Below the pieces are notes generated by a model that did not search any database, was not told the DNA's origin, and saw nothing but the letters and a program-made list of their open reading frames with translations. From contig SVHG01000006.1 in NCBI GenBank assembly GCA_015055965.1, positions 57,234 through 121,233 on the forward strand: a stretch of 64,000 nt of DNA, in the 5' to 3' direction. This document shows positions 27,053 to 61,905 of the stretch, in pieces (the stretch's first letter is position 1; every line of letters starts with the position of its first letter). Both the position numbers and the translations under genes were made by a program. This stretch comes from Clostridiales bacterium. Lineage in GTDB: Bacteria > Bacillota > Clostridia > Christensenellales > Borkfalkiaceae.

Positions 27053-27634
27053 TTATTTTGTGATAATAGCAATATAAATATCTATATTAGAAGCAAAGTT
27101 AAAGAATAAATAAGCAAAAATAGTAAGAGCAAGGATTAAAAATATAATAAGTAGCACGTTATAAATTTTATACCTTTCGCCCCTTGTTACTATTAAGTAA
27201 ATAACCGCACCTAACGCACCGCCAAGAGTATTTAAGATTAAATCGTTTAGCATAAACGAGCCTATTACGCTACTTAGCTGAAAAAGCTCTATTATTAAAG
27301 AGAATAAAAAGCTAACTATAAATGCCTTTAACAGCCTTTTACTTTGGAATAAGCCAGCCGTAAAAATACCAAATGGAATAAACACGGCAAGGTTTAAAAA
27401 ATCTAAAAGAAGAGTTTTTTTAATTACCCCTATTTGCGCTTCTATCTTATAAAACTCAATTAGCTTTAATCCCCTAACGAGCCTTTGCTTTAAGCTCATA
27501 GTGGATAAGAAGTTATAATTAGCTATTAAATCCTTAGGCATAATCGCCTTTAGTGCTATACCCCAAATAAGTAGTAACGCAAACAATGCAAAAGATGCCT
27601 TTATTAAATAATTAAAGATTTTTTTACTATTCAT
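27053..27634 (-). CDS. VanZ-like family membrane protein (third copy in the window)
   Basis: 193 aa. Motifs: FIPFGIFTAGLF and IELFQLSSVIGSFMLNDLILNTLGGALG. Confidence 0.85.
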   Translation of the reverse strand: MNSKKIFNYLIKASFALFALLLIWGIALKAIMPKDLIANYNFLSTMSLKQRLVRGLKLIEFYKIEAQIGVIKKTLLLDFLNLAVFIPFGIFTAGLFQSKRLLKAFIVSFLFSLIIELFQLSSVIGSFMLNDLILNTLGGALGAVIYLIVTRGERYKIYNVLLIIFLILALTIFAYLFFNFASNIDIYIAIITK

Positions 27635-29741: not shown

Positions 29742-30158
29742 TTAGAAGGGAAGCTGATCGTCGTCTGCCATAACCTCTAACTCGGGTTTCTTTGAACCGG
29801 AGCTTATGGGACGGGGTTCTTCTTCCTGACCTTCCCCTGAACCTTTTGAGGATAGGAATTCCACTTCGTTTGCCACGATATCCGTTACCGTGCGCTTATT
29901 ACCGTCTTTATCTTCATAAGTACGGTTTTGTAAGCTACCCACGATTGCAACCTTGCTACCCTTTTTAAGGTATCTTCCGCAATTTTCTGCCTGAGTTCTC
30001 CAAACGGTGATATTAAAGAAGTCTGTTTGGCGTTCGCCGTCACTGCTAGAGTAATTGCGATTTACAGCAATTGAAAAACGGCAAAGAGCAATACCGCTAG
30101 GGGTTTCGGAAAGCTCGGGATCACGTGTTAAATTACCAATAAGATATACTTTATTCAT
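29742..30158 (-). CDS. ssb: single-stranded DNA-binding protein
   Basis: 138 aa. OB-fold N-terminus MNKVYLIGNLTRDPELSETPSGIALCRFSIAVNR, a Gly/Glu-rich linker, and an acidic tip DDDQLPF. Confidence 0.95.
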   Translation of the reverse strand: MNKVYLIGNLTRDPELSETPSGIALCRFSIAVNRNYSSSDGERQTDFFNITVWRTQAENCGRYLKKGSKVAIVGSLQNRTYEDKDGNKRTVTDIVANEVEFLSSKGSGEGQEEEPRPISSGSKKPELEVMADDDQLPF

Positions 30159-30704: not shown

Positions 30705-33700
30705 TTAGGGAAGAACGGGAGCGCTATCAATTAGACCGAATACGATATCGAAGAAGTCAGCCATTGTGATTTGTTCCCAAGTCTTCTTTTCGCTATCAGC
30801 TTTACCGAAGTTATAAAGTTCAGTAATCTTAGCCTTTCTAGCGTCGGTTAAATCAGTTTCTTTTACTATGCCGATTTGAACTAATACGTCAAGTGATGCA
30901 TCCTTAGATAGCTTCTTTTCAAACTCAGTTGAAAGTGAGGTTAAGGTTAACGCGTTGTATTCAGCTTCAGTAAATACCTTGAATACGTCACAGTCGTCGT
31001 ATCCAATGAAGGTGCTTAACTTAACGTCAGTCTTAATCTTAGCACGTAAGTCGGTGCTAAAGTCAGCATCTAAGTCCTTAATCTTGTAATCAACAAGTAT
31101 CTTAACGATATCGTCGGTTACTTCTTCGCCAGCATCGTATAAGCCGTCCGCATCAGTATCGGTGTACCAAGTGCCCGTTAACTGATCTTTCTTGTAGCCC
31201 ATTACTTCACCAATGTATAGCTCGTCGATTGCACTGCTTAACTGGCCAATCTTCTTGTCTTCAAGTAGTTCAAGTAGAGATCCGTCGGTTACTTCAATTA
31301 CGTCGCCTAAAGTGAATTCATTAACAATGCCACCAAAGTCATTCTTAACCTCGCTTAAGGTGTAATCGCAAAGCTTACCAAGTAGTCCGGTTACAAGAGT
31401 AGTACCGTCATACCAGCCGTCTGCGCCTTCGGTGTATCTGAAGATGTCACCAATCTTAAGCGCTTCAACCTTATCCATGATAGTACCGATTCCGTCGCCG
31501 TGGGTAATATCCTTAACAAGTATTCCGGCAAGAGCGTTAGTTAATTTATCAGCAGGCTTAGCTAGGTCAACGATTAAGAATGCATATCCGTTTTCATCAA
31601 GAACTACTTCGTTTAATCCGTCCTTAGTCTTGAAGCTGTAATATACGTCTTCGCTACCACTGTATGAAACTCTTGCTAAGTGCATTAGCTCGCCAAGAGT
31701 GATTTCTTCAACCACGCTGATTATATCTAACGTTCCTTCTATTAGCTCGTGAGCGTCAAGAGAAGAAATACGTTGTGTTAATGTATCAACTTGAGTATAT
31801 GCGTTAATTACGCCTACACCCTCTACGTAAACGTCTTGCTTGCTGAACCATACGCAAGATGCATCGTGAACGTGACCGTCTACTAGGTTGCCTTCACAGG
31901 TGTAGCCAAGTAGCTCGCCCATATAGAAGCCGTCCATTAATGCGTCGTAATCGATATTCTTATTGATTACGTTAGCAAGCTTCATTTCGTAAATAACTTG
32001 TTTTACGTGATCCTTGATGCCGTAACCAAATTCTATCTTTTCGCCCTTGTTGGTCCAAACCTTATTAACTTCGTCGTATACGTTATAACCGTCTAATAGC
32101 TCGCCAACACGCATATCGCCAAGAACAGCGGTTAATAAGTATTCCTTACCTTGAGCCTTAGTATTGATTATGAAGTCGTATGCGCTTATGTTACATACGG
32201 TTGCAATTAGTTTAGCGTAAGCTTCGGTTGATAGCCACTTACCGGTTGCTTCATCATAAATTGCATTGTAAGTAGCAACTTGACCGGCTTTTTCTGCGCG
32301 ATTGTTAAGAGCTATTAACGCTTCGCCAACGATATCACCCATCGTTAAGTGGCTAATTGCATCAATTACTAATAACTTAATTCCGCCTAAACCGCCGTCG
32401 ATAGCAGCCTTAACGTCACCAACCGTGTAGTTTAGAGTTACTTCAAGTAGTTTTTCGAATGAACCTTCGAAATCCCACTTTCCGTTTTCTAGCTTAGTTG
32501 AGGTAATGTTTACACCTAACTGATCAGCTAAGGGGTGAACGCCTGACTGTAATCTGCCAAGCATATCAGCAAATACGATATCGCCTACTCTTAATTGTTC
32601 AACTAGGCTTAATGCGTATCCCTTTAGGTCATCCTTGTTATCAAGAATATCCTTTAAGCTTACGTTTAGAATAATATCCATTACGCTAACCATGCTGTTT
32701 ACCATAGTCCACTCTTCGTATGACTTCTTGGTTAAGGGTGCTTCGCCGGGTAGGATACCTTCTGCCTTAGCTTGGATATCGCTAGTTACGGTTAACAAGT
32801 TACCAAGAGTTACGTGAGTGAATATCTTATTACCAAAATCGTAACCGGTAGCTACTAAATCAATAGCTCTTTCATTAAATACTTCGTTCATTAAGCTATT
32901 AACGATGCCATCTCTTGAGTAAATACCGTCGTTTACAGTGTAACCTAAGTTATCAGCAAGAACGTCGCCTACGGTTGCATCAGCTACTACCTTGTTAACA
33001 AGACTTACTAATAGGTCGTTTGCTGCGAAGTATAGAACTGCGCCAACACCTACGCCAGCCGCGATTGCGAAAGGTCTGTAGTTTTCGGGTGTTGCTGCCC
33101 AAACGTCTGCTGCGTTGAATTTAATTGAACCAAGAGTTCCGCTTAGACCTGCGTGAAGTAGACTGTATACGAAATCAATCATGCTATGAGCAAAGATTTC
33201 ATCAGTAACAGAGTGTACTGCAGTAATTACTCTATCTACGTCAAGACCTAAAGTTCCAGCCTTAATATTTCTGAAGTTAATATCTTGATATAGGTTGATA
33301 AGCTCTGCGAATACTGCGTCTATTATTCTATGTTGTACCACGTGATCTAAGGTATTCCATACGTCGATTATAATATCAGATACCTTGCTGTCACCGTTTA
33401 AGGTTATACCGTTTAGAGGACCGGTAATTAAGCTGTTTGTTAATCTTACTATATCTCTTACTAAGCACTCGTCTAGGCTGGGAAGAGCGGTTACAACTAC
33501 GTTTGCAGTTGAATCTAGTAGATCGTTTACGTTAATTGCTAACGTGCCTTCTAATACTCTACCAATGATTACGCCTTCGTATAGACGGCCAAGCTCAGTA
33601 AATACGCTATCTATAACGTCGTGTCTTACGATATGGTCTAAGATTGCCTTACCGTTGATTAACGCGTCGGTTATTAGCTGTTCAGCGTGGAGATATACGT

Positions 33701-36700
33701 CTCTTAATTCGCCACCAATGCCGAATTTTGCAATTCTTGCAATATCGGTAACGAAGCATTCGTGTCCTACAAAGGCAATTGCTACCTCTGCAAGATAATC
33801 TACAACGTCATCAAATTCAAGACCTAAAGTACCTTCTACGATTTCATACTTAATATGAGTATCGCCGTATAGCTCAATTAGTCCTTCAATTACAACGTCT
33901 GCCTTTTGGCTAGGTCTGTACTTAGTTACTACAGCGTCTACCATGCCAAGAACGTTTTCTACGCTCATCTTATGATAGTATGCAGCCTTGAAGTCAAATC
34001 CAAGAGTTAACGCGTCTGCTACCTTCGTTCTGAAGATTGCGCTTGCTAATTCATTTTCTTCGCCTTCGAATAAGTAAGTTCCGATTTCGTATCCTAAGCG
34101 GTGCGCTAAGAAGTCGCCAAGTAATGCGTCTTCACCAAGTACGCGTTTAACAATCTTAACTAGTAAGGGGTTAGCTAATACGTACATATGAGCGCCAACG
34201 TCTACAGCTGCGATTATTGCTAAAGGTCTTAGATCTTCAGGAACTGCCGCCCATGCTGCTGATACGTTGAATACGATTGAACGTAACTGACCGTCCATGC
34301 CTTCGTGCGCTACGTTGAAGATAGCTTCAATAACGTCGTGAGTTATGAATAGTTTAGTTATATTGTGTACAGTAGTAATTACGTCGTCTACGTATAGGTC
34401 AAGTAAATCTTCCTTAACGTTTCCTACGTATACCTCTGCAAGTAGGGTTGAAAGCTCGTCGATTGCTGCTGCAAATCTGGTTGACTTAATATAGTCGGTA
34501 GCGATTGCCTTTGCAAGCTGTAAGGTTACGCCTACGCTTGCGTTTGCTTCAAGAGCAATATGAGCTAAGTTGCCTGCTAATACGTAAGTTAATAACGCTG
34601 CGCTTTCGTTAATTAATTCTACGTGTGCGCTTAACGCGTTGATGCTTACAAGTACCCTTGCAGCTGCGCCGATTACGTCGTCAACTAAGAAGGCGGGGAT
34701 TACGTTAATTACGTTAGCCGCAATAGTTTCACCGTATAAGCCCTTAACCTCTTCGCAGAATACGTTAACCGTTTCGCTTTCACGATAGAATGCGGTAAAT
34801 ACTGCGTTTGCGTCGTCTACTAGGTCTTTAACTAGTGCTTGTCCGTCTAATCTAATAGCTCTTAACTCGCCTGCTAGTACGCCTTCTAATAGATTTGCAA
34901 CTGAAATTATCTTAGCTTCGTGTGCAGCAATTGCATCTATGCTTGCTACTATTCTTCCGGCTGCGCCGATTACGTCGTCAACTAAGAAGCCGGGGATTAC
35001 GTTAATTACGTTAGCCGCAATAGTTTCACCGTATAGTGCCTTTGCTTCATCACAAATTAAGTTTGCAGTTAAGCTTTCGCCTACGAATGCGGTGTAAATA
35101 GCGTTTGCATCGTCGATTAAGTCTTTAACCAGTACGCTGCCGTCTAATCTAATAGTTCTTAATTCGCCGTCTAATGCGTCTACTAATAAGTCTTCAATTG
35201 CTACTATCTTAGCTTCGTGTGCCTTTAATGCTTCTACACTTGCTACTACGTTTGCAATTGAGTTAATTACGTCGTCTACCTTGAAGCCAAGTATTGCATT
35301 GAAGATATCCTTAGTTAAGGTTTCGCCGTATAATTTAGCAATTTCTACAAACATTGCTTCAATAGTATCACTTTCTGTGAAGTGACGTACTACTTCGTAC
35401 GTTTCATTTACTAAATCTGCTACCTTTTGTGTTCCGTCCATTCTAGTTTCGGGAAGCTTGCCTTCTACTATAATTTCCAGAACGTCTGCTATATCACTTA
35501 TTAATTCTGCTTGTTCTGATAGTATTACGCCCGTTACGTTTGCTACTGATCTGATTACTTCATCAATTTCAATTGCTAACGTGCCTTCTACTATACCAAG
35601 TACGGTTACGCCGTCGTATAACTTATTAATTTCATTGAAGATTGCTTCGCTTGCGTCGCTAATGTAATAGTTGCCGATAATTGCTTCTACTAATCTTGCA
35701 GTTTCGCTTACCTTTGCTTTTTCTTCAAATACGGGAGCGGTAATAGTTTCAGCTACTAAGTATTGTACTAACGCTGCGCTATCACTAATGATTCCTTCGT
35801 GTGCCTTTAACGCTTCTACGGCTACAAGTACGTTTACAATTGAGTTAATTGCATCGTCAACTTCAATTGCTAACGTGCCTTCTACGAAGGTATTTACGGT
35901 TACGCCTTCGTATAGCTTAGTTAGCTCTGCAAATACTGCTTTAACTATTGCATTTTCGCCAACCATATGGTCTACGATTGCCTTAACGTTAGCTAAAGCT
36001 ACGGAAATTTGTTGTTCGCCGTGATATCCTACGTTAGCTAGCTCGTTACCAATTGAATCGGTTAGAAGCTGAGCAATATCTCTTACTAAGCATTCGTTTT
36101 CTACGCCAACGATTGCTACTACTACGTCTGCTAAGTAATTAATTACGTCGTCTATTTCAAGCGCTAGGGTTGTTTCTACGATTTCGTCTACGATATGAGT
36201 TTGACCGTAAAGCTCAATTAAGCCTTCTATAGCGGCATCTGCAATTTCGTTTGCTGCGTACTTAGTTACAACCGCATCTGCTATTCCAAGAATATTTTCA
36301 ACGGTTAGTAATTCATAGTATGCTGCCTTGAAGTCATAGCCAAGAGTTAAAGCATCTGCTACCTTAGTGTTGAAGATTGCGCTTGCTAACGCATTTTCTT
36401 CGCCTTCAAATAGGTAGGTTTCAGCTTCGTATCCTAGAGGCTCTGCTATATAATCGCCAAGAATTGCATCTTCGCCAAGTGCCATCTTAGCAAGCTCTAC
36501 TAACGCGGGGTTAGCTAGTACGTACATATGAACTAGTACGTCTGCAAGAGCAATTACTACGATAGGTCTTAAATCTTCAGGAATTGCTTCCCAAGCAGCT
36601 AACGCGTTAAAGGTTAGGTTGCCTAAAGCACCGTCTAATCCTTCGTGAGCTACGTTGAAGATTACGTCTACTATATCGTTTTCTACGAATACGTTTACTA

Positions 36701-39700
36701 TATTGTGTGCAGTGTCTAAAGTAACGTCTACGTCAAGCGCAAGAGTATCTTGGCCGATAGTTACGATATAAACCTCTGCAAATAGGGTTGAAAGTTCGTC
36801 AAATACTGCTTCTAACTGTTCAGATTCAACGTAGTCACTTACGATTGCCTTAACTAGTTCAAGCGTCTTGCCTACCGTTGCTTGTGATTCAAAGCCGATA
36901 GAACCAATCTTGCCTGCTACTAAGTAAGTTAGTAGGTCGCCAACGTGTTTAGCGTTAGCTTCTAGTTCGTTGAACGCAGTTACTACTACGCTTTCTACTG
37001 AACGAATTAGATCGTCCATAACGATTGCTAAAGTACCTTCCGCAATACCTATTAAGGTTACGCCGTCGTATAGCTCGATTACTTCTGCAAAGGCTACGTC
37101 TACAACGTCGTTTTCTACGCCGAAGCTATCTACGATTGCCTTAACGTCTACAAGCACTACGGATACTAGCTGTTCAAGTACGAATACGGGTTCAGCAATA
37201 GTTCCGTCTACTAAGTCCTTTGCTAATGTTGCAAACGCATCAACGATTGCTGCGTTACCTGTTACAGGCTCTTCATCTGCTAAAGCAACAACGCTTGCTT
37301 CATTACCCGCAACGAATATCTTAACAATACTTGCAACGGTATCGATTACGTTATCAAGAGTTAAACCAAGAGTTCCGTTAACGATATCAAGTAATAATAC
37401 GCCGTCGTATAGCTTAGATAGCTCGTTAAATACTGCGTCTACTTCAACGTATGCTAAGTAATCCATAGCGATTAATTTAGCAAGATCTAACGTTCCGCTT
37501 ACGGTTGCGCTTTCTTCAAATACGGGAGCGGTAATAGTTCCGGCTACTAAGTACTTAGCTAGTTCTTCTACGTGTTGTACCTTATGTTCGTTACCTACTA
37601 AAGCTACTTCAACAACGTCTGCTACGGAAGCAATTAGATCGTCCATAGTAATTGCTAAAGTGCCTTCTACGATAGCGTTTAAGGTTACGCCGTCGTATAA
37701 CTCGGTAAGCTCTGCAAATACTGCGGTTACAACGCCGTTATCCACAAAGTGATCTACGATTGCCTTAACGTCTGCTATAACTACTGCAACCTCTTTATCA
37801 CCGTGGTAGCCGATTAATCTTAATTCACCGCCGATTACGTCGTTGATAAGCTTAGCTACGTCTCTTACTATACATTCGTTTTCTTCACCAAGTGCAACTA
37901 CTACTACGTTTGCAATTGAGTTGATTACGTCTGCTAGTTGAATTGATAAAGTACCTTCTACAATAGTGATTAAGGTTACGCCGTCGTATAGACCAATTAA
38001 TTCTTCAAATACTGCGTTAACTATTGCATTTTCTGCTACTAAGTGATCTACGATTGCCTTAACGTCTACTATGAGTCCGCTTACTGATTGTTCACCGTGG
38101 TAGCCTAATTCCTTTATTGTGCCACCGATCGCGTCGGTTAGAAGCTTAGCAATATCTCTTACTATGCATTCGTTTTCTTCGCCAACGATTGCTACTGCTA
38201 CGTCTGCTAAGTAATTAGTTACGTCGTCTATTTCTAAAGCTAAGGTTGCTTCTACGATTTCATCAATAATATGAGTTTGACCGTATAGCTCAATTAAGCC
38301 TTCGATTGCAACGTCTGCTATTTCGTTTGCTGCATACTTGGTTACAACCGCGTCTGCTATTCCAAGAATATTTTCTACGGTTAGTAATGCGTAGTATGCT
38401 GCTTCAAAGTCGAAGTCGTCGTTTGCAATATCAACAAGCTTGGTGTTAAATACTGCGCTTGCTAACGCGTTTTCTTCGCCTTCGAATAAGTAAGTGTCCT
38501 TAGTGTATCCTAAGGGTTCTGCTAAGTAGTCGCCAATAACGGCGTCTTCACCAAGTAACTGACCAACTAAATCTACTAAAGTATCGTTTGCAGCTACGTA
38601 TAGAACGCCTACGGTAGTTGCTAATACTACAACCGTAACTATTTGAGCTGCTTGAGGCATGGTTTCAAAGGCTGCTAAAGGATCAAATCCTAAGTTGCCT
38701 AAAGTGCCGTATAAGCCGGCGTGTGCTACTGCGTAAATAGTATCTAATACTTCGTTGGTAACGAATACGTTGGTTATGTTGTTAACGGTATCTATTACGT
38801 CGTCAATATCAAGCGCAAGAGTATCTTCGCCAATATTAACGATTACTACTTCTGCAAATAAAGCTGAAAGCTCGTCAAATACCGCTTCAAGCTCTTCAGA
38901 TTCTACGTAGTCGCTTACGATTTCCTTAACTAGATCAAGAGCTCCACCTACCGTTGCAGCCTCATCTAATGCAGGAGCGCCGATAGAGCCGGTTACTAAG
39001 TACTTAACTAATTCTTCTGAGTGTTGTACCTTTGCTTCGTGACCGGGGATAACTGCTTCTAATACGTCTGCTACTGATCCGGTTAAATCATCCATAGCAA
39101 TTGCTAACGAGTAGTCTACTATATCTCTTACTAGTACGCCTTCGTATAGACCGATTAGTTCTTCAAATACAGCGTCTACTACCGCGTTATCTTGTACGAA
39201 GTTACCTACGATTGCTTCTACGTCTTCTAATAAGGTGCTTACGTAAGCATCGTCGTGATAGCCTAATCTATTTAAGTTAGTTCCGAACGCATCTGCTATT
39301 AATTTAGCAATATCGTTTACAAGCTTAGCTTCTGCAGGAATTGCAGTTGCTACTACTGCTGCTACTGAATATACTAACGCGTCGAAATCAAGACTCGTTG
39401 TGTGAGCTACTACGTCTTTTAGTAGTACGCCTTCGTATAACTTAGCAAGTTCTTCAAACGCTACGCTTACTACGTCGTTAATTACGAAGTTTTCTACTAT
39501 TTTACGTGTGATTGCTAATAAATCGGTTACTAAAGCTAAATCGTTGAATACGGGTTCGCTAATAGTACCAAAGACTAATTCCTTAACTAATGCAGCTACG
39601 TCGTTTACAAGAATTTCTGCCGTGGGAATAGCTACGCCTAATACTCTTGCAGTTGAATCAACTAAATCGTGAATTTCAATTGCTAAAGTTCCTTCTACTA

Positions 39701-42700
39701 TAGCGTTTAATACAACGCCTTCGTATAGACCGATTAATTCTGCAAATACAGCGTCTACTACTGCATTTTCTACGCCGAAGCTATCTACGATTGCCTTAAC
39801 GTCTGCAAGTACTACGGTTACTAACTGTACGTCGTTGAATAAGGGAGCGCTTACAGTTCCGTCTACTAGGTCTTTAGCTAGTTGAGCTACTGCGTTAACG
39901 GTTGCCGTTTGTTCTACTGCAAATGCGTTTACGATATTTGCAAGGGTATCAATTACGTTATCAACGGGTAGATCAACGGTTGCTTGAACTACGTCAAGTA
40001 CTAGTACGCCTTCGTATAGCTTAGCTAATTCGTTAAAGATCGTTTCTACTTCTACGAATGCTGCGTAGTCAAGAACGATAGTCTTAACAAGACCAAGAGC
40101 TCCGTCTACCGTTGCGCTTTCTTCAAATGCAGGAGCGCCGATAGTTCCGGCTACTAAATACTTAACTAATTCTTCTACGTGTTGTACGTTATGTGCGTTA
40201 GCGGGAATACCTGCTTCAACAACGTCTGCTACGGAAGCGATTAGATCGTCCATAGTGATTGCTAAAGTACCTTCTGCAATCTTTTCTAGGATCACGCCTT
40301 CGTATAACTCGATAAGCTCTGCAAATACTGCGTCTACTACTGCGTTTTCTACGCCGAAGCTATCTACGATTGCTTCTACGTCTGCAATTAGCTCGCTTAC
40401 TAATACGTTACCGTTATAACCAATCTTGCTTACCGTACCGCCAACAGCGTCTACCACTAATTCAGCTACTGCGTTAACGGTTGCTGCGTTTTCAGGTAGC
40501 GCTACTGCAAGCACGCTTGCTACTGCCTTAACGGTTGCGTCAAAGTCTAAAGCTACGGTTGCGTTAACGAATTCGTCTACTATTACGCCTTCGTATAATC
40601 CGCTTACCTGTGCAAACGCTTCGTTTACTACTGCATTTTCTACGCCAAAGCTATCTACGATTGCCTTTACGTCTGCTAGGATTACGGTGATTAACTGTTC
40701 GCCGTGATATCCTATCTTTTCTATCTTACCGCCAAGAACGTCTTTTGCTAGAGCTGCAAATGCGTTAATCTTTTCTTCTTCGCCAAGTCCTGCAATTAGA
40801 ACGTTTGCAACAGAAGTGATTACTGCATCTACCTCTAAGCCTAAGGTGGTCTCGCCAATTAGGTTAATAGCGCTATCGCCGTATAATCCGCTTAGTTCGC
40901 TAATTACTGCATTTAATACTGCATTTTCGCCAACGAGATGTTGGATAATGTACTTAAGATCGCTTAGGATTAGGCTTACTGACTGTTCGCCGTTATAACC
41001 TGCTTTTTCTACCCTACCGTCGAACAGATCGGTTAGAAGCTTAGCGATATCTGATACTAGACATTGATCTTCCGTGAAGATTGTCTTTGCAACGCCTTCG
41101 CCTGCAGCAATTACAGCGTCAATATTTAACGCTAGAGTGCCTTCTACGATAGCGTTTAAGGTTACGCCTTCGTATAACTTAATAAGCTCTGCAAATACTG
41201 CGTCTACTATTGCGTTTTCTACGTCTAAGCTATCTACGATTGCCTTTACGTCTGCTAGAATTAAGCCAACTTCGTGATCACCGTGGAAACCAATTAATCT
41301 TAATTCGCCGCCTAATACGTCTTTCACTAGGGTTGCTGCTGCGTAAACGGTATCTGCGTGGGGCTTTAACGCGTCAACGCTTGCTACAACGTTTGCAATT
41401 GCATCAACTGATTTATCAAAGTCAAATCCGGGAATTACGCTGAAGATTTGGTAGGTTAAGGTGTCGCCGTACATAGCTGCTATTTCATCAAATGCAACCG
41501 CTACAGCTTCGTATTTTACAAAATAGGTTACAACTTCCTTGGTTGCTATAACTAAGTCTGCTACCTTTTGGCTACCGTCTAATCTTAATTCGCCAAGAGC
41601 GCCGTCTAGCATGATTACTAGTACGTCTGCTATATCTGCAATTAGGGCTTCCTCTTCAGGTAAGAATACGTTAACTACTGCTGCTACTGATGCGATTACG
41701 TCGTCAATTTCAATAGCTAAAGTACCTTCTACGATAGTTGCTACCGTTACGCCTTCGTATAGCTTAATAAGCTCTGCAAAGATTACTTCGCTTGCATCAC
41801 TAATATAATAGTGGCTTAAAATTTCTTCTACGTCTGCTAGAAGTACGGGAACTAATTGTTCACCGTGGAATCCTAGTTCGCCTAAGTCAATACCGAATGC
41901 ATCTGCTAATAGCTTAGCAACGTCTCTAATAACGCATTCATCTTCGGGGAATGCAACTACTAATACGTTTGCGATTGAGTTAACTAGTACGTCAAATTCA
42001 ATAGCTAAAGTACCTTCTACGATAGTTGCTACCGTTACGCCGTCATATAGAGCGGTTAACTCTTCAAATACTGCGTTAACTATTGCATTTTCTGCTACTA
42101 AGTGATCTACGATTGCCTTTACGTCTGCTAGAAGCACGCTAATTAACGCGCCACTGTGGTAGCCTACGTTTGCTAGCTCGTTACCGAATGCGTCGGTTAG
42201 AAGCTTAGCGCTATCTCTTACTATGCATCCGTTTTCTACGCCAACGATTGCTGATGCTACGTCTGCTAAGTAATTAACTACGTCGTCTAATTCTAAAGCT
42301 AAGGTTGCTTCTACGATTTCATCAATAATATGAGTTTGACCGTATAGCTCAATTAAGCCTTCGATTGCAACGTCTGCTATTTCGTTTGCTGCATACTTGG
42401 TTACAACCGCGTCTGCTATTCCAAGAATATTTTCTACGGTTAGTAATGCGTAGTATGCTGCTTCAAAGTCGAAGTCGTCGTTTGCAATATCAACAAGCTT
42501 AGTGTTAAAGATTGCGCTAGCTAACGCGTTTTCTTCGCCTTCAAATAAGTAAGTGTCCTTAGTGTATCCCATGGGTTCTGCGATATAATCGCCAAGAACG
42601 GCGTCTTCACCAAGGAATTGACCAACTAAATCTACTAAAGTATCGTTTGCTGCAAAGTATAGAACGGCTACGGTAGTTGCTAACGCTGCAATCGTTACGA

Positions 42701-45700
42701 TTTGCGCGGTTTGAGGCATTTCTTCGTAAGCAGCTAAAGCGTCAAATCCTAAGTTGCCTAAAGTGCCGTATAAACCAGCGTGAGCTACTGCGTAAATGGT
42801 ATCTAATACTTCGTTGGTAACGAATACGTTGGTTATGTTGTTAACGGTATCTATTACGTCGTCTACGTCTAATTCAAGAACGTCTTCTGCAATATTTGCA
42901 ATAGTTACGTTTTCGAATAGAGCTGCCAGCTCGTTAAATACTGCGTCTACTTCTACGAATGCTGCGTAATCAAGAACTACGTCCTTAGCTAATAATAGAG
43001 CTTCGCCAACGGTTGCGGTTTCTTCTAATACGGGAGCGCCTACCGTGCCTGCTACTACATACTTAACTAATTCTTCTACGTGTTGTACGTTATGTGCGTT
43101 AGCGGGAATAACTGCTTCAACAACGTCTGCTACGGAAGCGATTAGATCATCCATAGCGATTGCTAAAGTGCCTTCTGCAATCTTTTCTAGGATCACGCCT
43201 TCGTATAGAGCAATTAGTTCTTCAAATACAACGTCTACTATTGCGTTTTCTACGCCGAAGCTATCTACGATTGCCTTTACGTCTGCAATTAGCTCGCTTA
43301 CTAATACGTTACCGTTATAACCAATCTTGCTTACCGTACCGCCAACAGCGTCTACCACTAATTCAGCTACTGCGTTAACGGTTGCTGCGTTTTCAGGTAG
43401 CGCTACTGCAAGCACGCTTGCTACTGCCTTAACGGTTGCGTCAAAGTCTAAAGCTACGGTTGCGTTAACGAATTCGTCTACTATTACGCCTTCGTATAAT
43501 CCGCTTACTTGAGCAAACGCTTCGTCCACGATTGCATTTTCTACGCCAAAGCTATCTACGATTGCCTTTACGTCTGCTAGGATTACGGTGATTAATTGTT
43601 CGCCGTGATATCCTATCTTTTCTATCTTACCGCCAAGAACATCTTTTGCTAGAGCTGCAAATGCGTTAATCTTTTCTTCTTCGCCAAGTCCTACAATTAG
43701 AACGTTTGCAACAGAAGTGATTACTGCATCTACCTCTAAGCCTAAGGTGGTCTTGCCAATTAGGTTAATAGCGCTATCGCCGTATAATCCGCTTAGTTCG
43801 CTAATTACTGCATTTAATACCGCATTTTCGCCAACGATATGTTTAATAATGCACTTAAGGTCGCTTAGGATTACGCTTACTGACTGTTCGCCGTTATAAC
43901 CTGCTTTTTCTACCCTTCCGTCGAATAGATCGGTTAGAAGCTTAGCTATATCTGATACTAGACATTGATCTTCCGTGAAGATTGCCTTTGCAACGCCTTC
44001 GCCTGCTGCGATTACAGCGTCAATATTTAACGCTAAAGTGCCTTCTACGATACCTTCTAAGGTTACACCGTCGTATAGAGTAATTAGTTCTGCAAATACA
44101 GCGTCTACTACCGCGTTTTCTACGCCGAAGCTATCTACGATTGCTTCTACGTCTGCAAGTACAACAGTTACTAGTTGCTCTCCGTTGAATACGGGTGCGC
44201 TTACAGGACCGTCTACTAAGTCTTTAGCTAGTTGAGCTACAGCATTAACGGTTTCTTCGTTTTCAGGTAGTGCTACTGCAAGTACGCTTGCTACTGAATC
44301 GATAACGTCGTCGATTTCAAGAGCTAAGGTTTCATCAGCAATTGCTACTAACTCTACGCCTTCATAAAGCTCAATTAGTTCTGCAAATACTGCATCTACT
44401 ACCGCGTTATCTACGAAGTTACCTACGATTGCTTCTACGTCTGCAATTAGCGTGCTTACTAATGCGTTGCCGTGGATACCGAAGGTCTTAATTTGTACGC
44501 CGAATACGTCGGTTAGAAGTTTTGCAATATCTTCAAATAGTTCTGCTTGAGCAGGTACTGCTACTGCAAGTACGCTTGCTACTGAGTTGATAATATCGTC
44601 AACGTATAGGTTCTTAGTGCCTTCTACGATAGCGTTAAGAGCTACGCCTTCGTATAGTACGGTTAACTCTTCAAATACAGCGTCTACTACCGCGTTATCT
44701 ACGAAGTTATCTAAGATTGCCTTTACGTCTGTTAATACTACGGGTACTAACTGAACGTCGTTGAATAAGGGAGCACTTACAGTTCCGCTGATTAGATCTA
44801 CTAATAGCTGTTCTATATCTCTAATTAATTCTTCCTGTTCAGGTAGTGCTGCCGCAAATACGTTTGCTTCCACGCTGATTACCTTAGACATTTCTATTGC
44901 TAACGAGTAGTCTACGAAATCTCTTACTAATACGCCTTCGTATAAAGCGATTAGTTCTTCAAATATAGTATCTACTACTGCGTTTTCTACTACGAATCTG
45001 TCTAAGATTGCCTTTACGTCTCTTAATAAGGTGCTTACGTAAGTATCGTCGTGGTATCCTAATCTATCTAAGTTAGTTCCGAACGCATCTGCTATTAATT
45101 TAGCAATATCGTTTACAAGCTTAGCTTCTGCAGGAATTGCAGTTGCTACTACTGCTGCTACTGAATATACTAATGCGTCGAAATCAAGACTTGTTGTGTG
45201 AGCTACTACGTCTTTTAGTAGTACGCCTTCGTATAGCTTGTTAAGCTCTTCAAACGCTACGGTTACCGCATCGTGAATTACGAAGTTTTCTACTACGTTA
45301 TAGATAATATCTAATAATTCGGTCACGTACGCGAGGTCGTTGAAGATGGGCTCGCCAATAGTACCGTAAACTAGCTCTTTAATTAAATCTGCAGAATCGG
45401 TTACAAGAATTTCAGCCGTGGGAGCTGCTACGATTAATACTCTTGCAACTGCATCAACTAAATCGTGGATTTCAATTGCTAAAGTTCCGTCTGCAATATC
45501 TTTTAGCATTACGCCGTCGTAAAGAGCAATTAACTCGTTAAAGATTGCATCAACTACTGCGCTTTCTACGAAGTTATCTAAGATTGCCTTAACGTCTGCA
45601 AGTACGTATGCAACGTATTGAGTATCGTTAAATAAGGGAGCTTTGATAGTTCCGTCTACTAGGTCAGCTACAAGTTGAGATGCTTCTCTAATAACTGATT

Positions 45701-48700
45701 CATATTCGGGGAATGCAACTACTAATACGTTTGCAACTGCATCAACTAAATCGTGAATTTCAATTGCTAAAGTTCCGTCTGCAATTCCGCCTAAGGTTAC
45801 GGCCTCGTATAGCTTAGCAAGCTCTGCAAATACAGCGTCTACTACTGCGTTTTCTACGCCAAAGCTATCTACGATTGCCTTAACGTCTGCAAGAACTACG
45901 GTTACTAACTGTACGTCGTTGAATAAGGGAGCGCTTACAGTTCCGTCTACTAGGTCTTTTGCTAGTTGAGCTACTGCGTTAACGGTTGCCGTTTGTTCTA
46001 CTGCAAATACGTTTACGATATTTGCAAGGGTATCAATTACGTTATCAACGGGTAGATCAAGAGTTGCTTGAACTACGTCAAGTACTAGTACGCCTTCGTA
46101 TAGCTTAGCTAATTCGTTAAATACTGCTTCTACTTCTACGAATGCTGCGTAGTCAAGAACGATAGTCTTAACAAGACCAAGAGCTCCATCTACCGTTGCA
46201 CTTTCTTCAAATGCAGGAGCGCCGATAGTTCCGGCTACTAAATACTTAACTAATTCTTCTACGTGTTGTACGTTGTGTTCGTTACCTACTAGAACTACTT
46301 CAACAACGTCTGCTACGGAAGCAATTAGATCGTCCATAGCAATTGCTAAAGTGCCTTCTGCAACAGCGTTTAGAGTTACGCCTTCGTATAACTCAATTAG
46401 TTCGTTAAATACAGCGTCTACTACTGCGTTTTCAACGTCTAAGCTATCTACGACTGCCTTAACGTCTGCAAGTACTACGGTTACTAATTGATCGCCGTGA
46501 ATACCAATTAATCTTAATTCGCCACCTAATACGTCTTTTACTAGGGTTGCTACTGCGTAAACGGTATCTGCATGGGGCTTTAACGCGTCTATACTTGCAA
46601 CTACTCTTGCAAATGAATCAGCAGATTCGTCAAAGTCAAATCCGGGGATTGCGCTGAAGATTTGGTAGGTTAAGGTGTCGCCGTACATATGAGCAATTTC
46701 TCTAAAGATTGCTAATACGGTGTCACTTTCCGTGAAGTGGTATACTACGTCGTAAGTAGCGTTAACTAAATCTGCTACCTTTTGGCTACCGTCTAATCTT
46801 AATTCGCCAAGAGCGCCGTCTAGCATAATTACTAGTATGTCTGCTATATCTGCAATTAGAGCTTCTTCTTCAGGTAAGAATACGTTAACTACTGCTACTA
46901 CTGATGCGATTACGTCGTCAATTTCAATAGCTAAAGTACCTTCTACTATACCTTCTAAGGTTACGCCTTCGTATAGCTTAATAAGCTCTGCAAATACAAC
47001 TTCGCTTGCATCACTAATATAATAGTGGCTTAAAATTTCTTCTACGTCTGCAAGTACTACGGTTACTAATTGTTTACCGTGATATCCTAGCTCGCCTAAG
47101 TTAATACCCAATAGGTCTGCTAATAACTTAGCAACGTCTCTAATAACGCATTCATCTTCGGGGAATGCTACTGCTAATACGTTTGCAATTGAGTTAACTA
47201 ACGCGTCAAATTCAATAGCTAAAGTACCTTCTACGATAGTTGCTACCGTTACGTCTTCGTATAGAGTAATTAATTCAACGAAAATTGCGTTTACTACGTC
47301 GTTGTTTACGAAGTGAGCCAAGATTCCCTTAACGTCTGCTAGAAGTACGCTAATTAACGCGCCACTGTGGTAGCCTACGTTTGCTAGCTCGTTACCGAAT
47401 GCGTCGGTTAGAAGCATAGCGATATCTCTTACTAAGCATTCGTTTTCTACGCCAACGATTGCTGATGCTACGTCTGCTAAGTAATTAACTACGTCGTCTA
47501 ATTCTAAAGCTAAGGTTGCTTCTACGATTTCATCAATAATATGAGTTTGACCGTATAGCTCAATTAAGCCTTCGATTGCAACGTCTGCTATTTCGTTTGC
47601 TGCATACTTGGTTACAACCGCGTCTGCTATTCCAAGAATATTTTCTACGGTTAGTAATGCGTAGTATGCTGCTTCAAAGTCGAAGTCGTCGTTTGCAATA
47701 TCAACAAGCTTAGTGTTAAAGATTGCGCTAGCTAACGCGTTTTCTTCGCCTTCAAATAAGTAAGTGTCCTTAGTGTATCCCATGGGTTCTGCGATATAAT
47801 CGCCAAGAACGGCGTCTTCACCAAGGAATTGACCAACTAAATCTACTAAAGTATCGTTTGCTGCAAAGTATAGAACGGCTACGGTAGTTGCTAATGCAGC
47901 TATTACGTAAGGTTGAACCTCTGCAGGAAGCTCTTCGTAAGCAGCTAAAGGATCAAATCCTAAGTTGCCTAAAGTGCCGTATAAGCCGGCGTGAGCTACT
48001 GCGTAAATGGTATCTAATACTTCGTGAGTAACGAATACGTTAGTTATATTATTGATAGAGTCGATTACCTCATCAACGTCTAAATCAAGGGTTGCTTGAA
48101 CAACGTCCTTAACCATAGCGCCTTCGTATAGCTTGTTAAGCTCTGCAAAGATTACTTCGCTTGCGTCACTTACGTAGTAGTTGCCAATAATTGCTTCTAC
48201 GTCTGCAAGTACTACGGTAATTAGCTGTTCGCCGTTGAATACGGGTGCGCCTAAAGTTCCGTCTACTAAATCGTCTACTAGCTTAGCAATTTGATCTACC
48301 AGTGCTTCTTCAGGTAAGAATACCTTAACAACGTTTACTACTGAAGAAATTACTTCTTCTACCGGTAAATCAAGAGTTTCTTGAACAACGTTAACGACTA
48401 ACGCGCCTTCGTATAGCTTGTTAAGCTCTGCAAATACTGCTTCGCTTGCATCACTAATATAGTGCTTACTAATAATTGCTTCAACGTCCGCAAGAATGGT
48501 AGTTACAAGAACGCTTTCATCAATAATGGGCGCGCTTATAGTACCGTCTAATAAGTCGGTTAGAAGTTTTTCTATATCGTCTATATTAATAATGTTACGG
48601 CCAACAACGTAAGACGCTGCCTCAATTACGTCATCAACGGGTAAATCAAGAGTTGCTTTAACAAACTCTTCTAAGGTTACGCCTTCGTATAAATCCTTAA

Positions 48701-51700: not shown

Positions 51701-54700
51701 TTGCTGCTACTGCATTAATCTTATCACTATGTTCTCTTATTGCTTTAATACTTGCTAGTACCTTTGCTAATGAATCAATAACGCTATCTACGTAGAAATC
51801 TAAGGTTGCGTCTACTACGTTCATAGCAACGGCATCGCCGTATAATCCTGCTAATTCTTCAAACGCTACTCTCATAGCTTCACTTTCGGTTATTAGTTTT
51901 ACAACGTCGTAAGTTGCAAGTATTAAATCTGCTATCTTCGCGTTGCCGTTTAGGTGTGCGTCAGCTAGAGTACCTCTATGCATTATTGCAATTACGTTTG
52001 CTACACCCTTGATTATTCCAGCTACCTTTTCGTCTTCTACTGCAGCTGCTCCTACGTTACCCATTGCGCGAATTACTTGAGCTACGGGGAAGTCGGGGAT
52101 TGCAGATAGGAATTCTCTGCTTAACGCATCGCCGTATAGAGCTGCTAACTCTTCCATTCCTACGTTTACTGCATCTATAGTTACAAAGTAGTTTAATATT
52201 TCTTTTGCTCTTAATATTAAGCCAGCCATCTTAGTTACGCCGTTTAATGAAACGTTTGCTAACGTTCCTTTTAGCATATCCTTAAGAAGAGCTTCTATTT
52301 CTGCAATTACTACTACGTCTTCAGGGAATGCAACGACTGCTACGTTTGCTAATGCAGTTATAACGTCGTCAATTAAGAAGTTGGGGATTACGTTAAAGAT
52401 GTCTTTAGTTAAGGTTTCACCGTATATCTTTGCGATTTCATCAAAGATAGCTAATACTGCCGCGTTATCCACAAAGTGATCAACCACGTCCTTAGTTGCT
52501 AGAACTAAGTCTGCCACCTTTTGATGTCCGTCTAATCTTACCTCAACAAGCGCGCCTTCGTGCATTATGGTTATAACGCCAGCGATACTGTTTACAAGCT
52601 CAGCATCCTCGGGTAATACTAATGCTACTACTACCTTTGCCATTGCAAATACCACGTCATCAATAGAGAATCCGGGAATAACACTGAATATATCTTTGGT
52701 TATAGTATCGCCATAAATAGCTGCTAATTCATCAAATGCAACCGCTACAGCCTCGTGTTTTACAAAGTAAGTTGCTACCTCCTTGGTTGCTAGAACTAAA
52801 TCTGCAACTAATTGACTTCCGTCTAATCTAATAGTTCTTAGCGTTCCGTCTAACATTATTATTAGAACGTCTGCTATTTCGTGAACTACTACCGCATCTT
52901 TCTTTAACGCTTTAACACTTGCTACTACGTTTGCAATTGAATTAATTACGTCGTCTACTAAGAAGTCAGGTATTGCCGTGAAGATATGCTTAGCAATAGT
53001 ATCGCCGTATAAGCCCTTTACTTCTTCAAAGAATACGTTTAGAGTTTCGCTATCATAGAAGAATGCGTCTGATAATAGATTTGCGTCGTCTATTAATTCG
53101 CATACGGGAACTGAACCGTCTAATCTGATGGTTCTTAAAGTTCCGTCTAGCATATCCTTTAAGGTTACTGCTACTGCGTTAATCTTATCGCTATGCTTTC
53201 TTATTGCTTTAACACTTGCTACTACGTTTGCAATTGAATTAATTACGTCGTCTACTAAGAAGTCAGGTATTGCCGTGAAGATATTCTTAGCAATAGTATC
53301 GCCGTATAAGCCCTTTACTTCTTCAAAGAATAGGTTTAAAGTTTCGCTATCGTAGAAGAATACGTCTGATAATAGATTTGCGTCGTCTATTAATTCGCTT
53401 ACAGGAACTGAACCGTCTAATCTAATAGTTCTTAAAGTTCCGTCTAGCATATCCTTTAAGGTTACCGCTACTGCGTTAATCTTATCGCTATGCTTTCTTA
53501 TTGCTTTAACACTTGCTACTACGTTTGCAATTGAATTAATTACGTCGTCTACTAAGAAGTCAGGTATTGCCGTGAAGATATGCTTAGCAATAGTATCGCC
53601 GTATAAGCCCTTTACTTCTTCAAAGAATACGTTTAGAGTTTCGCTATCATAGAAGAATGCGTCTGATAATAGATTTGCGTCGTCTATTAATTCGCATACG
53701 GGAACTGAACCGTCTAATCTGATGGTTCTTAAAGTTCCGTCTAGCATATCCTTTAAGGTTACTGCTACTGCGTTAATCTTGTCTTCATATTTTTCTAATC
53801 TAGCAATGCTTACTAGAATTCTTGCAGCAGAATCAATTAAATCATCTACTAAGAAGCCAGGAATTGCCTTGAAGATATCCTTGGTTAAGGTGTCGCCGTA
53901 CATGTTAGCGATTTCTTCAAAGATAATTCTGGGGGTATCGCCGAATGTAAAATGCGTTACTATATCGTAGGTTTCATTTACTAGATCTGCTACCTTTTGG
54001 CTACCGTCTAATCTAACGGTTCTTAAAGTGCCTTCTAGCATAATTACCAGAACGTCTTCGATATCGTTAATGAAAACAGAGTATTTCTTTATTGCGTCAA
54101 CACTTTCTGCTACGTTTGCAATTGCAGCTATAACGTCGTTAACGTCAAATTCAGGAATTGCCTTGAAAATATCTTTACTTAAAGTATCGCCGTATAAGAT
54201 TACTAACTGATCGAGAGCAGTATTTAAAGTAACGTTAGTGAAGTATAGGTTAATAATGGCTTTGGTGCTTAGAATTAAAGAAGCTACTTTTACGTAACCT
54301 GATAATTCGGGCTTACCAAGAGTTCCGTGAAGCATATCCTTAAGAAGAGCTTCTAACTCTACGACTAATTCAACCTCTTCAATACCGGTTGCTAAGATAA
54401 CGTTAGCAAGAGAGGTGATTACCGCGTCAATATCAAACTCGGGAATTGCCTTAAAGATATCCTTGGTTAAGGTGTCGCCGTATAAAGCAGCGATTTCTTC
54501 AAATGCAACCGCCACTACTTCGTTTACGGTAGCGGATGCTCTATCCTTAATAATATAATTAATTATATCATAAGTTTCTAATACTAAATCTCTTACTAAT
54601 TGATAGCCGTCTAGGTGAGCAGTTTCTAAAGTGCCGGCGTGCATAACTACTAGAACGTCTGCAATTTCGTGGATTAAAGTAGCTTCATCCTTAATAGCAA

Positions 54701-57700
54701 CCGCTAATACGTTTGCTAGCATTCTAATAACTGCGTCTATATCAAGATTTAGCGTGCCTTTTGCTATATCAACTACCAATACGTCGCCGTAAAGAGCAGT
54801 AAGCTCTGCAAATATTGCATCAACAAGCTCGTTATCTTCTACGTATTCGTCAACTATAGCTTTAATATCAGCAAGAAGCTGTGCAACGGTGCAATCCTTG
54901 AAGAATTCGGGCGCGTTTAAAGTACCGCCAAAGGTGTCTTTTGCAAGAGCTGCCACTTTGCCAATCATTTCTTCGTATTCTTCGCCGATTATTGCTAAAA
55001 CAAGGTCTGCAACGGCATCTATAACGTTTGCAACAAGCTCGTCCCCGTGGTAGCCGATAAAGTTCAATCTACCGCCAAATACCATCTTAACCAGCTCTGC
55101 AGCTTCCGTAATTATCTCTTGGTACTGTTCGTTAGTGATAAATGCGTTTGCAACCTCTGCAACGTAATCAATAACGCTATCTAATTCAAGATTTAAGGTT
55201 GCTTCTACGATTTCATCCACAACGTGGGTTTGACCGTATAGCTCTACTAAACCGTCAATAACGACGTCTACTCTTTCGTCGCCTAAATGCTTGGTTAAAG
55301 CAGCGTCTGCAATACCAAGAATATTTTCAACGGTTAATAGATCGTAATATGCGGCTTCAAAGTCAAAGTCGTCGTTAACGATATCAACAACCTTGGTTCT
55401 GAAGATTGCGCTCGCTAAGGCGTTTTCTTTACCTTCAAATAGGTAAGTATCTTCGGTAAATCCTAAGGGCTCTGCTAAGTAATCACCCACTAAAGCGTCT
55501 TCGCCAAGAATTTGCGCAACCGCCTCTACAAGGGTGTCGTTTGCAACGAAGTATAATACTCCGCCGAGTACAGCGCCTGCAGCTATTACGTAGGGTTGAT
55601 ATTCTTCAGGAATTGCATCCCAAATAACCTCACCGTCTACGGTTAGGTCGTTAAGAGTTCCTTCAAATGCTTCGTGAGCAACTTCATAAATTTCATCAAG
55701 GATTTCTGAATCATCTACGAATAGATCGGTTATAGAATTAACAACGTCTATAATTTCGTCTACGTCAAGCTCTAAAATATCCTCTTCTATATTGCCAATG
55801 GTTACGTCTTCTAATAAGTCAGCAACCTCTTCAACAACGTCAACAACGTCTTGGTCAACACCAAGCTCGTCAATAATTACTGCAACGTTTTCTAAGATTT
55901 CGCCAATGGTAGCATCCTCGTAAACAAGCTCGGGATCGCTAATGCTTCCATCTACAACCAGATCAACGATATTAGAAACGGCATCAAGAATTTCAGCGTA
56001 TTCGTCATCCGTTACAACGTTAACGATATCTACTACGCTGTTTACGATATCAGAGATTTCTAAATCGCTTAGACCTTCTTCGATATTGCCAAGCTCAACG
56101 TCGCCAAGTAAATCTGCAACGATACCCGCAATTTCGGTAACCGTGCCGTCCTCGTCTAATTCAAGAACGTCTACGATATCTATTACTTCGTTAATGATTT
56201 CACCAATAGTGGTTTCTTCATAAACAAGCTCGGGATCGCCAACGCTTCCACCTACTACTAGGTCTACTAAATCGGTTACTTCTTCTAATAAATCAGAGTA
56301 TTCGTCATCCGTTACAACGTTAACGATATCTACTACGCTGTCTACGATATCAGAGATTTCTAAATCGCTTAGACCTTCTTCGATATTACCAAGCTCAACG
56401 TCGCCAAGTAAATCTGCAACGATACCTGCAATTTCGGTAACAGTTCCGTCCTCGTCTAATTCAAGAACGTCTACGATATCTATTACTTCGTTAATGATTT
56501 CGCCAATGGTAGTTTCTTCGTAAACAAGCTCGGGATCGCTAATGCTTCCGCCTACTACTAGGTCTACTAAATCGGTTACCTCTTCTAATAGATCAGCGTA
56601 TTCGTCATCAGTTACAACGTTAACGATATCTACTACGCTGTCTACGATATCAGAGATTTCTAAATCGCTTAGACCTTCTTCGATATTACCAAGCTCAACG
56701 TCGCCAAGTAAATCTGCAACGATACCTGCAATTTCGGTAACCGTGCCGTCCTCGTCTAATTCAAGAACGTCTACGATATCCATTACTTCGTCAATGATTT
56801 CACCAATAGTGGTTTCTTCATAAACAAGCTCGGGATCGCCAATGCTTCCGCCTACTACTAGGTCTACTAAATCGGTTACCTCTTCTAATAAATCAGCGTA
56901 TTCGTCATCCGTTACAACGTTAACGATATCTACTACGCTGTCTACGATATCAGAGATTTCTAAATCGCTTAGACCTTCTTCGATATTACCAAGCTCAATG
57001 TCGCCAAGTAAATCTGCAACGATATCTAAGATTTCGGTAACAGTTCCGTCCTCGTCAACACCAAGTTCGTCAACGATTACGGCAACGCTTTCTAAAATAT
57101 CGCCGATAGTTGCGTCTTCATAGTTAAATTCGGGGTTGCCGATAGTTCCATCTACGAATTCCTTAACTAAATCAGCTATTTCTTCAACTGCGTCTGCGTA
57201 TTCGTCTTCCGTTGCGATATTAACGATTTCACTAGCGGTATCAACTAGGTCGTGAATCTTAATATCGGTAATACCTTCTTCAAGCTCGCTTAAAGTGATA
57301 TCTTCAAGTAGCTCTTGAACAACGTCTATAATTTCGTTTACGGCAGGATCTACGTCAACTGCTTCGTTTAAAATATTTTGAGCGTGTTCAACGATTTCAT
57401 CAAGAGTAATTAAATCGTTAAATATAACGTCGCCAAGCTCGCCGTAGAATAGGTCTGAAGCTAAATCTTCTAAAGCGTCAACTAAATCCTCGTATTCGCC
57501 GTCGGTTAAGATATCAACGATATCGCCAACTGCTTCAACTAATTCACTAACCGTTTTTTCTTGAATTCCTTCAACTGCTTCGTCTACGGGAATACCCTTT
57601 AAGAATTCTTCAATTCTATCAATAATGGGGTTAGCGTAAGTATCGTCCAGCACTTCAAAGGGAAGCGCGTTAATAACCTCTTGAACGTCGTTAATTAGTT

Positions 57701-61367: not shown

Positions 61368-61454
61368 GTTGTCATCTCCTTAGTGTTTTTGGCTGTTTTA
61401 CACCTCTTTTTTTAAAAAAGGGCATAATACGGCCTTTTCTAATGACTAAGTAAT

Positions 61455-61483
61455 ATTATAACATCACTAAGGGAAAGTGTCAA
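61455..61483 (-). promoter_or_regulatory. perfect consensus sigma-A promoter upstream of the giant ORF
   Basis: Minus strand: TTGACA (61483-61478), exactly 17 nt, TATAAT (61460-61455). It lies ~90 nt upstream of ATG 61367. Confidence 0.75.
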
Positions 61484-61905
61484 TAGTAATTGTTAAAAAA
61501 ATATAAATATTTTTAATTTTTCTCAAAATTTTCACACAGTAAAGCACGCGCCCTCGCCCTTTTACTTTTTTAGGGATAAAAAGGGGCAAAAAAGTGTTTT
61601 TTATTAAAATAAACCCTAAAATTGTTTTACAAAAACAGAAGAGTTTCTTGTTCGGGCGGTAGAGTCCCGCTCTTCTTGCCAAAATTAAATAAAATATTTT
61701 TCGTTTTGCTAAAAATTTTGCTATTTTACTCCCCAATATGGCGATAATCGCGCTATAGAGCCACTTTTTAAATCCTTTAAGAGTTAAAAATAGCTATAAA
61801 TTACCAAATTTTGACATTTTTGGCTAAAAGCGGTTGCTTTTTTTATCTTTCTAAGGTATAATTTAAAAAGAGCGAGCGTTTTTTTCGCTTCATTGGGGAG
61901 AGTTT

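Follow-up and report, generated by a model that had tools for sequence, protein, structure and literature searches.

The stretch of DNA analysed here, referred to as the window, comprises 64,000 nucleotides (nt) of contig SVHG01000006.1 from the Clostridiales bacterium assembly GCA_015055965.1. An open reading frame (ORF) at positions 30705-61367 of the minus strand runs without interruption and codes for a protein of 10,220 amino acids (aa), the giant gene amounting to 1.5% of the 2-Mb genome. The protein is acidic, with an isoelectric point (pI) of ~4.05, and its overall grand average of hydropathy (GRAVY) of +0.48 is unusually high for a non-membrane protein. An N-terminal transmembrane (TM) anchor is followed by a non-repeat head, a rod of tandem helical repeats and a non-repeat tail, and a module carrying an apolar helix recurs seven times along the chain. 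An initial annotation of the DNA had drawn attention to these modules and had raised the prospect that their helices cross the membrane repeatedly with loops on alternating sides. The results described below confirm the modules and do not support the alternating topology. The best explanation, in which about even confidence is placed, is that the modules represent a conserved domain subdividing a membrane-anchored, extracellular helical-repeat rod, in which they would serve as non-spanning hydrophobic nodes. The features of the protein are as follows.

30705-61367, minus strand: giant ORF, 10,220 aa, pI ~4.05, GRAVY +0.48
61260-61340, minus strand: N-terminal signal-anchor TM helix, aa 10-36, with RSFLRR before it
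59322-61259, minus strand: N-terminal non-repeat domain (head), aa 37-682, with 'h-x-h-G-D/E-h-h ... G-Y' units from the motif map
33063-59321, minus strand: ~88 tandem helical repeats of ~96 aa, aa 683-9435, with the modules in between, from an iterated profile search
55170-55772, minus strand: module 1, aa 1866-2066, apolar helix at 55542-55595
47487-48086, minus strand: module 2, aa 4428-4627, apolar helix at 47859-47912, also modelled with AlphaFold2
42276-42875, minus strand: module 3, aa 6165-6364, apolar helix at 42648-42701
38217-38816, minus strand: module 4, aa 7518-7717, apolar helix at 38589-38642
36141-36740, minus strand: module 5, aa 8210-8409, helix at 36513-36566 with Asp and His at i and i+4
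33801-34400, minus strand: module 6, aa 8990-9189, helix at 34173-34226 with Asp and His at i and i+4
32766-33248, minus strand: module 7, terminal type, aa 9374-9534, apolar helix at 33021-33074, linking the repeat array to the C-terminal domain
30708-32765, minus strand: C-terminal non-repeat domain (tail), aa 9535-10220, with G-D/E ... G-Y units like those of the N-terminal domain

Searches by BLASTP within the protein and in six frames across the genome each returned seven copies of the module, and a profile built on the insert described below gave exactly seven matches of 101-137 bits, the next best scoring 6.7 bits. The sevenfold recurrence reported in the initial annotation was therefore reproduced by all three approaches, the count being that of the assembly, in which 300-nt stretches in modules 2-4 are 96% identical. 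The LFEG(E/K)EN cores were located at nt 55422-55442, 47739-47759, 42528-42548, 38469-38489, 36393-36413 and 34053-34073, in agreement with the six positions first proposed, and the degenerate seventh copy suspected at ~32,900 is present at 32766-33248. Start-to-start spacings of 2561, 1737, 1353, 692, 779 and 384 aa were measured, against ~2,560, 1,737, 1,353, 693, 780 and 383 aa claimed. The earlier module length of ~170 aa required correction to ~200 aa. The description of super-repeats of shrinking length holds as an overall trend but not as a monotonic series, a spacing of 692 aa being followed by one of 779 aa. An uncharged hydrophobic segment had been assigned to each module; a stretch of 18 residues without D/E/K/R/H/N/Q was found in copies 1-4 and 7, while that of copies 5 and 6 is broken. 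The polar residue noted earlier in those two copies proved to be a pair, each helix holding both Asp and His four residues apart. Asp and His share one face of the helix, which suggests that the two were substituted as a pair and neutralise each other, rather than reflecting decay.

The modules are built into the repeats of the rod. The rod gave 91 profile matches in the iterated search, corresponding to ~88 tandem units of ~96 aa, and AlphaFold2 modelled the ordinary repeat as four helices plus a short beta hairpin. Two parts of the rod-repeat profile fitted the module, positions 1-57 ahead of an unmatched stretch of ~95 aa and positions 41-93 behind it, indicating that an insert of ~95 aa splits a single 96-aa rod repeat to give the module. 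The insert is made up of a 17-18-residue uncharged helix of Gly, Ala, Val, Ile and Thr, a turn, an 11-residue amphipathic helix and a beta-hairpin unit. The tight turn after the apolar helix falls at an invariant Tyr-x-x-x-Asn (Y-x3-N). The beta-hairpin 'LGD...GY' unit is of the kind making up the two non-repeat domains, head and tail: the hairpin part of the insert ('LGDYIAEPLGY..D.Y') shares the pattern of their units, which gave weak matches to the insert profile (6.7-18 bits; E 4e-4 at aa 432-476). AlphaFold2 was run on a 381-aa construct in which the module is bordered by a repeat at either end (17 alignment rows) and on the 209-aa module (27 alignment rows), both alignments being shallow. 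Both runs gave the insert the same secondary structure, in which three residues at the conserved (A/V)-A-N separate the apolar helix from the 11-residue amphipathic helix (DTLVDLVGQFL); a loop, a short beta hairpin with the sequence TYLFEGEEN and further helices follow. Foldseek searches of PDB with both models gave no significant match, the best E being only 2.5 and 5.0. No Pfam or NCBIfam match above cut-off was obtained for head, module, rod or tail in the 3,232 aa of the protein that were scanned. The Pfam labels BD_b_sandwich and GAF_NLP on homologues were rejected as spurious, the scores being summed from 30-aa fragments over repeats.

The modules are carried within larger segmental duplications. 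Identity is 94% between modules 2 and 3 and 76-84% between the repeats that come after them; modules 2-4 are recent copies or gene-converted, 0-12% of their identical residues being encoded by different codons. Comparison of modules 1 and 2 shows 77% identity in the insert and 69% in the C-terminal half-repeat, compared with 26% and 43% for the flanking repeats, and 40% of the identical insert residues are on different codons, as many as in the flanks. Insert identity at this flank-like synonymous divergence indicates that it has been held by selection and not by recent copying. A comparison of modules with ordinary repeats had been proposed in the initial annotation for homologues; within this protein it showed conservation of the insert and the C-terminal half-repeat to be much better than that of the neighbouring repeats. 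Purifying selection is stronger on the module than on the rod, and no part of the family is better conserved than the module. In a set of 20 modules drawn from three genera, the turn always contained its Tyr and Asn, Gly occupied position -4 of the helix in 14 and Ala or Gly position -7 in 16, and the other helix positions varied freely among V/A/T/I/G/L.

The protein begins with MLMRSFLRR followed by 27 uncharged residues forming by far its most hydrophobic segment (Kyte-Doolittle 2.66, Hessa sum -1.6, Wimley-White sum -6.4), and this anchor is kept in all complete homologues. The positive-inside rule, which is well established, was used to orient it; the two Arg before the 27-residue stretch indicate by this rule an N-in signal anchor. 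The head (~650 aa) and tail (~690 aa) are both rich in the short units of the motif map and match each other in BLAST, and one unit of their kind occurs in every module insert. The pattern of these units can also be written 'h-x-h-G-D/E-h-h...G-Y...W/Y' (59322-61259 and 30708-32765). The rod segments (33063-59321) have a GRAVY of +0.5 to +0.7 with 17% Asp/Glu and 4-6% Lys/Arg, and the rod repeats are far more hydrophobic than usual soluble proteins. Ordinary repeats hold apolar runs of 16 residues which, together with the GRAVY of the segments, indicate that strong hydrophobicity is the norm in this soluble-type rod. Fifty windows in the giant protein exceed a Kyte-Doolittle value of 1.6, so that simple TM scans are meaningless on this protein.

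Of 16 genomes searched in the same genus, 13 had a match to the giant protein, as had 12 of 16 in a second genus and one of three in a third; the 20 other genera sampled from the same bacterial family gave none. The record titles of the relatives refer to Christensenellaceae or to metagenome-assembled genomes of uncultured Clostridia from human, sheep and goat gut. A profile search of 1.84 billion representative proteins placed the module in only 32 clusters, all of them large proteins of this family or short fragments; a word-indexed protein search returned only nine proteins, and a scan of Joint Genome Institute (JGI) metagenomes revealed no further modules. Absence of the module from homologues had been named as an outcome that would refute the initial reading; every relative found carries it, and in most complete relatives the terminal copy adjoins the tail. 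The head shares 30-34% identity with those of all full-length relatives over a length of ~600 aa (E 1e-59 to 1e-80) and the tails are homologous as well (E 1e-7 to 1e-28), while the number of modules in complete N-anchored relatives is 1, 2, 3, 4 or 7. The smallest relatives, of 1,737-1,846 aa, have one module. Near-identical strain variants of a single homologue from European Nucleotide Archive (ENA) metagenome assemblies (P0005-P0009; 2,744, 2,959, 3,179 and 3,513 aa) differ in the number of ordinary repeats and all keep two modules, the differences in length reflecting either real repeat-number polymorphism or assembly collapse. The distance between modules shrinks toward the C-terminus in 14 of 17 adjacent pairs from this protein and G142, G160, G021, G178, P0001, P0010, P0011, P0015 and P0016, although these proteins are related and the trend is not a statistical test; the exceptions are in G160, in G021 and at one step in this protein. 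A thioredoxin gene lies upstream and rpsF-ssb downstream of the giant gene in every genome checked, this one included, constant neighbours that indicate a lineage-specific core gene and not a mobile element.

Were the N-terminal anchor and all seven module helices to span the membrane, eight crossings would place loops of 370 to 2,500 aa on alternate sides, a topology that is considered highly improbable. The hydrophobicity scales are divided on this question. The Hessa and Wimley-White values used throughout follow the published scales, summed without positional weighting, and are rough. Kyte-Doolittle means over 19 residues are 1.58-2.08 in six of the seven copies and 1.2-2.2 in relatives, so that most module helices lie around or above the classical threshold of 1.6, and Wimley-White octanol sums are negative (-0.1 to -6.2, compared with -5.5 to -8.4 for true N-terminal anchors). 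Five of the seven module segments are also among the lowest Hessa sums in the 10,220-aa protein, occupying ranks 2, 3, 4, 6 and 7 after the N-terminal anchor, with a segment of the N-domain at rank 5, module 5 at about the 15th and module 6 outside the top 25. These values favour eight crossings, as does low AlphaFold2 confidence of the kind seen with unpartnered TM helices. Against them, the unweighted Hessa sums of the module helices are positive, at +1 to +5, the true anchors having sums of -0.1 to -1.6. Module helices are therefore marginal at best as TM segments. A segment able to integrate would be expected to have about 19 or more residues and an apparent free energy near or below zero. 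Of the 71 distinct helices, 51 have an apolar run of 17-18 residues (range 13-21); the run is reduced to 13-15 residues between Lys and Glu in the smallest members (P0031, P0032, P0036), and in two further helices is broken to 8-9 residues by Asp/His; the Asp and His in helices 5 and 6 were likewise counted against spanning. Comparison among relatives decides more about the topology than the scales do. With one anchor and 1, 2, 3, 4 or 7 modules, orthologues with homologous head and tail have 2, 3, 4, 5 or 8 hydrophobic segments, and alternating passes would flip the side of the tail between species. Modules 2 and 3 would need opposite orientations in spite of their 94% identity, and repeats that are 76-84% identical would have to lie in different compartments. 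The flanks of the helices are alike in every copy of this protein, acidic on both sides with 0-1 Lys/Arg within 15 residues; no positive-inside bias alternates between helices, and the copies group as {2,3,4}, {5,6} and {1,7} and not as odd versus even. The inter-module segments are compositionally uniform, with no alternation. Variable parity, identical flanks, uniform composition and short apolar runs consequently leave the alternating multi-pass topology of the initial annotation unsupported.

The preferred explanation of non-spanning nodes would place the whole chain beyond the N-terminal anchor on one side of the membrane, the outside according to the positive-inside rule. The apolar helices would not span the membrane alternately; each would form a hairpin with the amphipathic helix that follows, and the split repeat, other modules or other chains would cover the rest of its surface. 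Such nodes would determine how long the rod segments are, by acting as junctions, as hinges or as sites of self-association. Several observations weigh against this explanation, beginning with the Kyte-Doolittle and Wimley-White values given above. The predicted local distance difference test score (pLDDT) of the apolar helix was 44-52, the only stretch below 50 in both AlphaFold2 models, compared with 80-92 for the remaining insert and 73-80 for the hydrophobic first helix of ordinary repeats. A low pLDDT is usual where the model lacks the partner of a helix, be it the membrane or a second chain. The alternative offered in the initial annotation, a buried core helix, was accordingly not reproduced as a confidently packed structure, a negative result that is weak evidence given the shallow alignments. 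The helix is Gly-rich, apolar on all faces and conserved along one stripe only, a pattern more typical of lipid-exposed helices, and its end, an aromatic pair with Asn/Asp, is like that of the N-terminal TM helix of the same protein (...GGxxYYAYKN). Its appearance is more that of a helix with a single packed side, the others facing something fluid or external.

These properties suit an arrangement in which the helices enter the cytoplasmic membrane from the outside without alternation, either as monotopic elements or packed on the N-terminal anchors of the same or neighbouring chains, so that the rod would be pinned at one to seven points with arches of defined length. We regard this main rival as unlikely but as a possibility to be taken seriously. 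Consistent with it are the helix left unplaced by AlphaFold2, the Wimley-White sums below zero, the apolar faces with a single conserved stripe of small residues, the narrow range of apolar length and the shrinking of spacings toward the C-terminus. The composition and ending of the module helix resemble those of the anchor, and hhalign paired exactly those stretches (GGxxYYAYKN, from the C-terminal half of the anchor, with GxxLYFxAND), but the resemblance is not significant (E 0.064, probability 0.9%) and homology of the two helices is not demonstrable. Furthermore, a straight 17-residue helix charged at both ends cannot enter and exit on the same side, the polar turn with its invariant Asn/Asp cannot be the buried tip of a re-entrant loop, and the smallest members offer only 13-15 apolar residues. 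A third proposal concerns origin and is compatible with either node or membrane-pinning function: the super-repeats would descend from separate N-anchored proteins, leaving the internal helices as fossil signal anchors with a secondary structural role. Anchor and module do share a Gly-rich apolar helix, an aromatic pair plus (K/A)N and an 'LGD' unit ~16-22 residues further on, and the weak matches of the insert profile to head and tail units are in line with such descent. The non-significant profile-profile comparison with the anchor, the position of the insert inside a rod repeat and not at a repeat boundary, and the lack of any family member with the segments as separate genes render this origin improbable.

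Other readings of the module helix were considered and rejected. Homology with the ordinary-repeat helix ending in LYE was unsupported (hhalign E 0.13, in a different register). Internal translation starts were discarded, a Met six residues before the helix being found for helices 3 and 4 only and not conserved. In those two modules (MPQTAQIVT..., 42648-42719; MPQAAQIVT..., 38589-38660) the Met mimics an N-terminal signal anchor; it is absent in the other copies and in homologues. A signal-peptidase site after the helix was likewise rejected, the residues past YF not being conserved as small across genera.

Phage tape-measure proteins are long and mostly helical, with a few TM-like apolar segments that are sequestered by protein in the assembled state. 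The giant protein would resemble them as a long helical protein with a few TM-like apolar segments, and differs in size, sequence and context, its gene being a core chromosomal gene beside rpsF-ssb with no phage genes around. The giant staphylococcal surface protein Ebh has a long array of all-alpha repeats and, like the present protein, is a megadalton single chain of a Firmicute with all-alpha repeats and one membrane anchor. We know of no recurring internal apolar helix module in Ebh. Repeats of the FIVAR/GA/DUF1542 type found in Ebh were absent from the Pfam matches of the homologues and of the parts of the protein that were scanned, and no sequence or family link with Ebh was evident in Pfam, NCBIfam or PDB. 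Anchoring of Ebh (~1.1 MDa) to the membrane is C-terminal (PMC4856396), in contrast to the N-terminal anchor found here. The present protein works in the manner of such giant helical-repeat proteins of the Firmicute surface but is not one of them, having no domains in common and its anchor at the opposite end. Giant proteins of Omnitrophota with numerous predicted TM helices have been reported, the authors calling the predictions unreliable (bioRxiv 10.1101/2023.11.21.568195), and the initial description of the topology as unprecedented was therefore overstated. These proteins ('Archaeovorins') are likewise bacterial, exceed 10,000 aa and have many internal hydrophobic segments predicted as TM. 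They differ in carrying SecA-DEAD, peptidase and carbohydrate-active domains, none of which was detected in three homologues scanned whole or in the 3,232 aa that were scanned of this protein, and unlike theirs the hydrophobic segments described here belong to one conserved, repeated module. What is new is therefore a single conserved and selected module carrying the segments; many such segments in a giant protein are not new.

Few bacterial gene products are as poorly understood as giant single-chain surface proteins, for which TM predictions are known to be misleading. The present family represents a conserved, syntenic core gene of widespread but uncultured, Christensenellaceae-like gut Clostridia, without a match to any known family or fold. 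As the only strongly conserved internal element, present in one to seven copies, the module provides a concrete 200-aa handle for experiments, and its count parity across orthologues is a worked example for testing predicted multi-pass topology. That the module helices are real membrane-embedded elements pinning a megadalton chain to the cytoplasmic membrane at one to seven points is doubtful in our estimation, and the pinning would be by non-canonical insertion or by bundling with N-terminal anchors. If true, the result would be a surface scaffold of arches with genetically set lengths that shrink toward the C-terminus. To our knowledge, no envelope architecture of this arch type has been described in any bacterium, and a protein with membrane-embedded helices of this kind would define a new way of organising the cell envelope.

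The gene neighbourhood was examined in the window (29742-30158 and 61368-62775) and at loci L030-L044. Only thioredoxin and rpsF-ssb were kept beside the giant gene, and no conserved protease, sortase or secretion gene was present at the loci checked. In the window, ssb is at 29742-30158 and a YegS/diacylglycerol-kinase-like gene at 61906-62775, the latter also being nearby in G160 and G021. A Mutator/IS256-family transposase gene (27882-29057; Pfam PF00872, E 5e-108) lies just downstream of ssb, and beside it is a gene for a VanZ-like membrane protein at 27053-27634.

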